Below, piece after piece: positions 48,318-49,284 of a stretch of 64,000 nucleotides of DNA. The stretch spans positions 159 to 64,158 of the forward strand of contig VGXG01000007.1 of assembly GCA_016873395.1 (NCBI GenBank). Direction: 5' to 3'. The number at the start of each line of letters is the position of its first letter. Position 1 is the stretch's first letter. A program made the translations under genes and the position numbers. This DNA comes from Nitrospira sp. Its GTDB lineage: Bacteria; Nitrospirota; Nitrospiria; Nitrospirales; Nitrospiraceae. The notes under the pieces were generated by a model. That model worked only from the letters and a program-made list of their open reading frames with translations. It was not told the origin of the DNA and did no database searches.

Positions 48318-49196
48318 ATGCGACCTCACTTCAAACAGGTGACCATCGTCGGGGTCGGCCTCATCGGGGGCTCGCTGGGCCTGGTCCTGAAGAAGCGGGC
48401 GATGGCCGACTCGGTCGTGGGGGTCGGCCGGCGAGTGGAGAATCTCAAAACCGCGGTGGAGCTGGGCGCCATCGACCGCTACGTAGCCGATGCCAGGGCC
48501 GGCGTCGCCGGTGCCGACCTCGTGGTCCTGGCCACCCCGGTGGATACCTACGAGCGCCATCTGAAGGACTGGAGCCACGGTCTGGCGTCGGGCGCCATCG
48601 TGACCGATGTCGGGAGCGTGAAAGGCCCGCTCGTCGCACAGGCGGAAGGCTTGATGCCGGAGGGCGTGTGCTTCGTGGGGGCCCATCCGATCGCAGGTCG
48701 AGAAAAAACCGGAGTGGCGGCCGGCTCGGCGGACCTGTTCACGGGCGCGCGCTGCATCCTGACGCCGACCGGCAAGACGGACCCCCGGGCCCTTCAAATC
48801 GTCCGCGAGCTTTGGGAAGCAGCCGGGTCCATCGTCCTGACCATGGATCCGTACCTGCATGATCGGATCCTGGGCGCGGTCAGCCACCTTCCCCACGTAG
48901 CCGCCTTCGCGCTGATCAACGCGCTGACGGAGATCAAGGACCGCACGACCCCGGAGTTGGACCTGCTGGCCTATGCCGGCGGCGGGCTGCGGGATACAAC
49001 GAGGATTGCGGCCAGTTCGCCCGAGATGTGGCGCGATATCTTTCTTTGGAACCGACTAAACCTCCTTGCGATGATCGAGGTCTACGAACAGCAGCTCCGG
49101 CGCCTGAAGCAGCTCATCCAGGCCGGAGACGGCCCGGGCATCGAAAAGGAACTGGAGCGAGCCAAACAGATCCGAGAGAAACTCAACAACCAGTGA
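48318..49196 (+). CDS. tyrA: prephenate dehydrogenase
   Basis: VTIVGVGLIGGSLGLVL (Rossmann fold), GAHPIAG, HD..L...SHLPH. Start at the internal ATG 48318, because the upstream part of the tracked ORF lies in the repeat. Confidence 0.9.
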   Translation: MRPHFKQVTIVGVGLIGGSLGLVLKKRAMADSVVGVGRRVENLKTAVELGAIDRYVADARAGVAGADLVVLATPVDTYERHLKDWSHGLASGAIVTDVGSVKGPLVAQAEGLMPEGVCFVGAHPIAGREKTGVAAGSADLFTGARCILTPTGKTDPRALQIVRELWEAAGSIVLTMDPYLHDRILGAVSHLPHVAAFALINALTEIKDRTTPELDLLAYAGGGLRDTTRIAASSPEMWRDIFLWNRLNLLAMIEVYEQQLRRLKQLIQAGDGPGIEKELERAKQIREKLNNQ

Positions 49197-49284
49197 TGAG
49201 TGATGTGTGATGAGTACAGATTTTTGCATTGATTCTTCCGTCTCACTTGCTCATCACCCATTACCCATTACCCATCACCCATGA
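49192..49284. repeat. heptad-periodic inverted-arm element (word GTGATG / CCCAT), containing the tyrA stop and aroA start
   Basis: GTGATGA GTGATGT GTGATGA GTACAGA | loop | CTCATCA CCCATTA CCCATTA CCCATCA CCCATGA. TGA 49194-96 is the tyrA stop. ATG 49281-83 is the aroA start. Confidence 0.85.

Follow-up and report, generated by a model that had tools for sequence, protein, structure and literature searches.

Heptad repeats holding the stop and start codons of a tyrA-aroA junction in Nitrospira: a probable by-product of repeats settling in tight gene junctions

Why should one gene end inside an arm of an inverted repeat and the next gene begin inside the other arm? The question is raised by the junction of tyrA (prephenate dehydrogenase) and aroA (5-enolpyruvylshikimate-3-phosphate (EPSP) synthase) in a 64,000-nt stretch of Nitrospira sp. 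DNA (contig VGXG01000007.1, positions 159 to 64,158 of the forward strand; hereafter the window), where the spacer is made of two opposed arrays of 7-nt units, or heptads, around a short loop. A reading of this DNA alone (the original prediction) had held that stops and starts of neighbouring genes are built into such arms, that several downstream genes have no Shine-Dalgarno (SD) sequence, that pairing of the arms sequesters the downstream start, and that the arm itself is the translation-initiation region. On following this up we consider it probable that the codon overlap is a passive by-product of repeats, themselves probably mobile, that settle in tight gene junctions, and that aroA is initiated independently of an SD. 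The source genome is a 2.34 Mb Nitrospiraceae metagenome-assembled genome (MAG) of an uncultured member of the Nitrospirota, 98% complete and with 61.5% G+C.

The tyrA stop, TGA at 49194-96, lies within the first left-arm unit, GTGATGA (49193-99), and the aroA ATG, at 49281-83, within the fifth right-arm unit, CCATGAC, both as had been claimed (Table 1). On sequence grounds the aroA start at 49281 is secure: the N-terminus M-x-S-L-T-I is common to all relatives of this AroA, which all belong to Nitrospirota/Nitrospiraceae, and past an in-frame stop at 49230 this ATG is the sole in-frame start. Nine independent assemblies of the population share the same spacer sequence but for one single-nucleotide polymorphism in the loop (49243 T>C), so it is not an assembly artefact; the gene callers of the nine assemblies place the same tyrA and aroA boundaries, and no unit-number polymorphism was found among them. 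The 37-nt loop has no open reading frame (ORF), and thus none for S23p, a protein to which we return below. No promoter was found in the element and no terminator-like site in 49190-49290, where, unlike at an intrinsic terminator, no T-run follows the right arm. When the whole window was searched against Rfam, the gathering score was reached by a tRNA and a group I intron only, and the element was unmatched. A target-site duplication was considered and rejected: TGA on both sides suits the window copy but fails in G036, L004 and L008.

For the sense strand a stem of 22 bp is predicted (-27.1 kcal/mol, z -3.9). The minimum-energy fold pairs the three left-arm units with the first three units of the right arm, and the aroA ATG is single-stranded, 10 nt past the stem, unlike the paired start of structure-gated coupling. 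The pairing probability of this ATG over the ensemble is 0.41, compared with 0.56 for control genes, and genome-wide the starts 3' of elements are paired at 0.54 as against 0.56 in controls. The idea that arm pairing sequesters the downstream start is therefore not upheld. Among the arm mismatches no excess of G-U was found on the mRNA strand (188 G-U versus 249 A-C), and hence no sign of selection for pairing in the sense RNA. The stop-to-start distance measured through the structure did not differ from that in shuffled spacers (median 16 versus 20), and the asymmetry seen at aroA, with extra unpaired units before the start, is not general (31 versus 30 cases).

The presence of an SD was scored with the criterion of MacGregor (2015, PMC4679880), for which the chance rate is 12.5%. 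No SD 4-mer was found upstream of aroA, the TrpD-like gene or cysD, in agreement with the original prediction. The 30 nt 5' of the aroA ATG are arm sequence alone, and the SD-less leader reads CCAUUACCCAUCACCCAUG; for aroA, then, the description of the arm as the initiation region stands. The lack of an SD is not peculiar to these three genes, since just 36% of the genes called in this genome are preceded by an SD 4-mer. Gene starts were taken from our own simple gene caller, which makes the SD and gap statistics approximate, and the named genes were checked one by one. Where an array ends 8 nt or less from the start (67 genes), the SD frequency is about 12%, the chance level, the repeats abutting the start and displacing the SD; with 21-40 nt between array and start, 54% of genes have one.

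The relatives indicate what the junction may have looked like before the element arrived. The tyrA-aroA gap is 20 nt or less in 57 of 71 relatives' junctions, three being ATGA overlaps, and SD 4-mers occur in 8 of the 57 short-gap junctions, which is the chance rate. This supports a junction of the translationally coupled type, whose ancestral form would be a spacer of 0-20 nt or an ATGA overlap, and from these comparisons the tight, SD-less coupling is ancestral. Because the junction would have been SD-less before the element arrived, and because most genes of the genome are SD-less, the missing SD of aroA appears to be inherited. A heptad element occupies the junction in seven relatives, including a same-genus genome. 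In all seven, tyrA ends in arm unit 1, 2 or 3, with different C-terminal tails (NNQ, NENQ, NRPVTGDA, NDRNG, NNRNQ or NNPATRDA directly before the stop, or L and a stop with TGAATTT), and the aroA ATG lies 0-12 nt 3' of the right arm. The dsrE/trpD-like and trpD-like/cysD junctions, too, overlap in element-free relatives (TAATG, TGATG, ATGA or GTGA), and other relatives carry unrelated arrays there, some of them translated as C-terminal tails. In L088, L090, L094, L095, L097 and L111 the TrpD-like protein ends in a C-terminal tail encoded by AGCCATC heptads, and these frames close only at an in-array TAG or at an ATGA overlap with cysD.

Turnover of the elements is rapid. The same-genus genome is syntenic with the window at 83-89% nucleotide identity, yet it has different heptads at the same junctions, and L008 and L014 have near-identical AroA, yet the junction element is present in one and absent in the other. 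At the pheA-aroF junction an ACTGA element is nested inside an older one. The ACTGA family (ACTGANNACTGANNACTGA), compared across 120 family genomes, has 198 matches in the source genome, 2 in the same-genus genome and none in most relatives, with separate bursts in a few other genera, a distribution that suggests recent proliferation.

The spacer is a gene-less copy of an abundant, genome-wide class of intergenic elements. Arrays of period 7 number 578 in the genome, as against 52, 74 and 68 for periods 6, 8 and 9; at a looser threshold there are 924 heptad arrays, of which 779 (84%) are mostly intergenic, and pairs of arrays are inverted in 226 cases and direct in 20. The units share a design in which a conserved core of 4-5 nt is joined to 2-3 variable positions that stay unpaired, two opposed arrays surrounding a short loop. 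Complementarity between the arms is only about 78%, interrupted periodically by 2x2 or 3x3 mismatches. The 209 canonical units form a continuum, in which NNACTGA is the commonest core (132 arrays) and GCTGA accounts for 54 arrays. Paired elements are held by 10.4% of tandem junctions, 10.5% of convergent ones and 6.6% of divergent ones; per kb of spacer, the density is 0.66, 0.57 and 0.19, respectively, about three times lower in the divergent class. Handedness is fixed within a family (TCAG...CTGA 42:0, GTGA...TCAC 20-25:0, GAGG...CCTC 15:0). We rejected the 42:0 ratio as a mark of transcription polarity, as an inverted repeat reads alike on both strands; the element being palindromic, its handedness is an intrinsic property like that of terminal inverted repeats. 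A link to REP-associated tyrosine transposases (RAYTs; REP, repetitive extragenic palindromic) was likewise rejected: the single Y1_Tnp gene (C57:5905-6189) has no heptad array within several kb.

How often do codons fall inside these arrays? Stops do so in 117 genes (5.5%), in units 1, 2, 3 and 4 in 61, 32, 18 and 6 cases, and the stop-codon usage of these genes is that of the genome. Among 169 elements at tandem junctions the upstream stop is inside the arm at 47, and 62% of facing stops lie at -10 to +27 nt from the arm edge. TGA/TCA recurs in every unit in 48% of arrays, as against 3.4% for background trinucleotides and, since 7 is not a multiple of 3, such an arm closes all three frames within three units. 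Starts fall inside an array in 21 genes genome-wide (about 1%) and at 13 of the 169 elements; in the usual case 8-30 nt separate arm and start, enough to fit an SD. Both codons are within arms at only 2 of the 169 junctions, so that the tyrA-aroA layout is real but exceptional. The original prediction thus holds for codons placed in repeat units, fails for sequestration of the start, and, as to a start within the arm, describes the exception. Since starts are not extra-paired, G-U pairs are not in excess, arms are not asymmetric and both-codon junctions are so few, no design at the level of RNA is seen.

Some elements of the class do carry a gene. All six S23p (PF05635) genes of the genome (on C59, C12, C3, C11, C1 and C45) sit in loops of inverted heptad arrays that share their core types with the gene-less elements, and the C45 copy has CCCATCA-type units like those of the aroA arm. 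In a set of 82 family S23p genes (our genome plus L168-L247), clades track the class of the flanking heptads: there are 8 changes on the tree, where 500 shuffles gave 15.8 on average and never fewer than 12. Of 121 family genomes, 94 have S23p, and most have few or no ACTGA-type arrays; the major cores GCTGA, CGTCA/GTGAC, CGTGA and GCCAT lack a cognate S23p gene in this nearly complete MAG. S23p is otherwise known from the intervening sequences of 23S rRNA in Coxiella and Leptospira, whose terminal inverted repeats form a stem round a loop; in Coxiella this is a near-perfect 28-bp duplex that RNase III cleaves in mid-stem (PMC4990558). Inverted repeats bracket every S23p gene here as well, but at tyrA-aroA the loop is without an ORF, the host is an mRNA spacer rather than rRNA, and the stem is built of heptad arrays.

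In the account that we favour, the elements would be DNA of fast turnover, probably mobile or self-propagating, lodging at gene 3' ends and filling spacers entirely. The colonised junctions would have been overlapping or nearly so in the ancestor (ATGA, TAATG, TGATG), and an insert that spared the downstream ATG would part the upstream ORF from its stop codon, so that a new one was needed. The ORF would then run on to the first in-frame stop in the arm, at a depth that varies between orthologues, and stop-bearing units would supply that stop in any frame. The downstream gene would keep its ancestral ATG, abutted by the array, or, with units of the GCTNATG type, the last unit would itself supply the ATG. 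Translation of aroA would proceed as it did before the insertion: ribosomes would presumably initiate independently of an SD on the C/A-rich 3' overhang that the right arm leaves unpaired, perhaps helped by others that terminate at the base of the stem and open it.

Several observations weigh against this account. The stops favour the first unit (61 of 117) and are not spread evenly over units 1-3, which hints at anchoring at the stop codon, beyond passive read-in. The GCTGATG unit matches the ancestral TCTGATG junction at six of seven positions, and CCATGAC resembles the sequence at the empty site of two relatives (L007 and L009), so that some codon-bearing units may be derived from the junction itself. 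An SD is found in none of the seven heptad-bearing tyrA-aroA junctions and in all three of the other long spacers, a contrast which, in small numbers and non-independent lineages, could mean that the hairpin preserves coupling. Lastly, the combination of conserved cores and free, non-complementary positions speaks for sequence-specific recognition and not for inert DNA.

These points lead to other explanations, which do not exclude one another or the account above. A ribosome terminating at the 5' base of the stem might open the helix and re-initiate, with no SD, at the aroA start about 10 nt past the 3' base, so that coupling of the ancestral ATGA type would be kept across the hairpin. This would suit a stable predicted stem in a junction that was overlapping or at most 20 nt long and SD-less, the retention in 7 of 7 element-bearing junctions of both the stop in units 1-3 and the ATG close behind the right arm, and the SD contrast just described. 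We nevertheless think it unlikely, as the aroA ATG is not sequestered, neither the through-structure distance nor G-U pairing on the sense strand departs from expectation, most downstream starts are 8-30 nt from the arm and regain an SD at normal frequency, both codons are so rarely within arms, and the elements are equally frequent at convergent junctions, where coupling is impossible. A broader version, in which heptad hairpins shared with Beggiatoaceae, cyanobacteria and other phyla, possibly serviced by S23p, act as a slip-proof bridge from stop to start or as an RNase III-cut leader in SD-less translation, strikes us as rather improbable. A codon in every unit would mean that gain or loss of units never removes the stop (or start), and the stem would set a ribosome terminating at its 5' base beside the start at its 3' base. 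Recognition in trans, by contrast, would make the arrays putative sites for a factor, either the four-helix-bundle protein S23p reading the heptad core or RNase III cutting the stem; such processing would split the cistrons, so that aroA would be preceded by a short leader without structure. The enclosure of all six S23p genes by arrays with the same core types, the agreement between S23p clades and heptad class, the conserved cores with free positions and the mid-stem cleavage in Coxiella are consistent with it. Major cores without a cognate S23p gene and the many S23p-bearing genomes with few or no ACTGA-type arrays speak against it, and the association of clade and core would arise just as well if gene and arrays were passed on together as a cassette; we hold it to be quite improbable.

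The codons could, alternatively, have been there first, slipped-strand amplification of a 7-mer that spans an overlapping stop and start giving rise in situ at least to the one-armed arrays, with the codons in the unit by descent. The dsrE/trpD-like junction, as TCTGATG (L104) or TAATG, matches GCTGATG, GCTAATG and GCTTATG at six of seven positions; array and ATG share one phase in the window, L087 and L096; unit number varies between close relatives (4 versus 3); and the likeness of CCATGAC to the empty tyrA-aroA site and the bias of stops to unit 1 fit as well. The fixed handedness (42:0) and the recurrence of the same cores around S23p genes argue instead for copying from master elements, GCTGA is common genome-wide, unit number is constant in the nine assemblies, and a six-of-seven likeness to the coding-constrained ATGAC has a chance of about 0.1 by our hand estimate. 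An origin of this kind seems to us quite improbable. REPs stabilise upstream mRNA, and Liang and Deutscher are said to have found in 2015 that a REP no more than about 15 nt from a stop stalls ribosomes. A similar role might be imagined here, the hairpins shielding the upstream cistron from 3' exonucleases and a stop at or in the stem base slowing termination and so tuning the upstream gene. The enrichment after gene ends, the stable predicted stems and the clustering of facing stops near the arm edge would be expected on these grounds. Wobble pairs show no bias on the transcribed strand, though, the arms are periodically mismatched, and the elements turn over too quickly between sister genomes for regulation at a given gene to be conserved; we regard this role as very unlikely.

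The remaining elements of the window are listed with the tyrA-aroA junction in Table 1. All coordinates given in the original prediction were checked and are correct, and the gene identities were confirmed by Pfam. The TrpD-like start (ATG, 34338-40) is the end of the fourth GCTNATG unit, as stated there, although the array is one-armed and hence not the arm of a hairpin; a close relative has 3 units in place of the 4 in the window. The stop of the same gene (35400-02) is the first TGA of TGAGTTA, as proposed, and the cysD ATG (35467) is 3 nt beyond the last unit of the right arm. The pheA stop (45983-85) does fall within CGTGAAT, in an imperfect array; in the same-genus genome an intact older CGTGAAN/NTTCACG element is kept at the pheA-aroF junction (L167 4753-4855). 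The claim that the convergent pheT and rplT stops sit in the outer units of an element of 8-nt period is likewise borne out, the pheT stop TAA (25569-71) lying within the second 8-mer and that of rplT, on the minus strand (25645-47), at the right arm's outer edge. Upstream of tyrA, the frame is open across the right arm of the aroF-tyrA element and the longest ORF begins at ATG 48252 inside it; the true start is likely ATG 48318, 3' of the element, and ATG 48252 spurious. At this junction the arms are of the types CGTGAAN, GSTGAAT and GTGACNN in three close genomes (window 48227-48320; L167 6967-7087; L001 2015-2125), complementary within each, which implies concerted change of both arms or repeated replacement.

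Table 1. Positions in the window of the tyrA-aroA junction and of other repeat elements.
Feature	Position	Strand	Details
tyrA (prephenate dehydrogenase)	48318..49196	+	Pfam PDH_N and PDH_C; ORF list; 292-aa gene calls in nine assemblies
Left arm	49193..49213	+	GTGATGA GTGATGT GTGATGA; TGA present in all three frames
tyrA-aroA loop, 37 nt	49214..49250	+	No ORF, no promoter-like or terminator-like signal
Right arm	49251..49285	+	TCATCAC CCATTAC CCATTAC CCATCAC CCATGAC; units 1-3 predicted to pair with left arm, units 4-5 unpaired
aroA (EPSP synthase)	49281..50594	+	Pfam; conserved N-terminus; no other in-frame start
aroF-tyrA element	48227..48310	+	CGTGAAN arm 48227-54; NCTTCACG arm 48285-48310
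One-armed array	34313..34340	+	GCTTATG GCTCATG GCTGATG GCTTATG; between DsrE-like and TrpD-like genes
TrpD-like/cysD element	35400..35464	+	Left TGAGTTA TGAGTTG TGAGTTG; right AACTTAA AACTGAT AACTAAA AACTGAA AACTTGA
pheA-aroF spacer	45981..46067	+	CGTGAAN remnant and nested TCAGT/ACTGA-family element (about 46021-46067)
Inverted element of 8-nt period	25557..25647	no strand	Convergent pheT/rplT

Other repeats and RNAs were seen in the window. In a right arm at 33850-33881, the third ATGACG unit is where the DsrE-like gene begins (33867), and two more units are translated (M-T-N-D-E...). The group I catalytic intron (RF00028, 57.3 bits, gathering level) is at 18676-18874 on the minus strand. 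Palindromes resembling miniature inverted-repeat transposable elements (MITEs) at 44562-44788, 57651-57868 and 60859-61006 are missing from the syntenic sites of the same-genus genome and are, judged by that absence, insertions in this lineage.

Tandem heptamers have been described before. TAACTGA direct repeats occur in the intergenic regions of marine Beggiatoaceae and of some Cyanobacteria and Bacteroidetes, adjoin starts and stop all three frames when read forward; an SD is rare in repeat-bearing spacers, the repeats overlap the upstream stop in 13 cases, and their patchy distribution suggests mobility (MacGregor 2015, PMC4679880). Stop overlap and the paucity of SDs are thus already described, and the same reasoning was applied there to the TAACTGA repeats. 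Our elements share with them the tandem 7-nt units, the intergenic position, the stops in all frames, the overlap with stops, the scarcity of SDs and the commonest core, NNACTGA. They differ in being mostly inverted, hairpin-forming pairs, where BOGUAY has 169 direct sets and 1 indirect (PMC4679880), in the tyrA-aroA unit GTGATGA/TCATCAC and the diversity of units, in the Nitrospirota host and in the association with S23p. In Geobacter metallireducens, paired elements with five MTYCTGA units were described as 'class 3 global regulator binding sites', alongside elements with four GGACCGG units (Aklujkar 2009, PMC2700814). They too are multicopy, adjoin genes, contain a CTGA-bearing unit and have five tandem heptanucleotides in looped, strand-switching pairs, but they belong to another lineage, were read as regulator sites in DNA, number only 16 copies and were described without codon overlap or any aspect of translation. 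Elements of the REP, bacterial interspersed mosaic element (BIME) and REPIN kind are likewise short and palindromic, number in the hundreds, fill the spacers that follow gene ends and are excluded from promoter regions; ours have no GTAG-type REP sequence, are tandem heptads with free positions, and lie apart from the Y1_Tnp gene.

The short tandemly repeated repetitive (STRR) sequences of heterocystous cyanobacteria are abundant intergenic tandem heptamers. Our search of the literature on STRR, and on S23p genes with repeats, found little. Among the G-rich heptamers of the GGGAATC type in Xanthomonas and Nostoc, a G-quadruplex is proposed for the Xanthomonas repeats (Rehm 2015, PMC4692102). 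In this limited comparison, both groups resemble the present arrays in abundance and intergenic position and differ from them in their units. What is new here is the Nitrospirota host, the inverted form and the series of filled and empty sites at one junction.

For annotation this means that in heptad-rich genomes gene ends run into repeats, that repeat-encoded C-terminal tails are not conserved protein sequence, and that arms reading outward, open in all frames, give rise to false upstream starts such as that of tyrA. For the organism, it means that a fast-spreading repeat would enter the overlapping, coupled junctions of essential operons harmlessly, owing to its stop in every frame. The heptamer-repeat problem, long unexplained, gains the Nitrospirota and a well-resolved filled-versus-empty series. 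If coupling across the hairpin or processing were true after all, the arrays would mean widespread SD-independent expression of internal cistrons.

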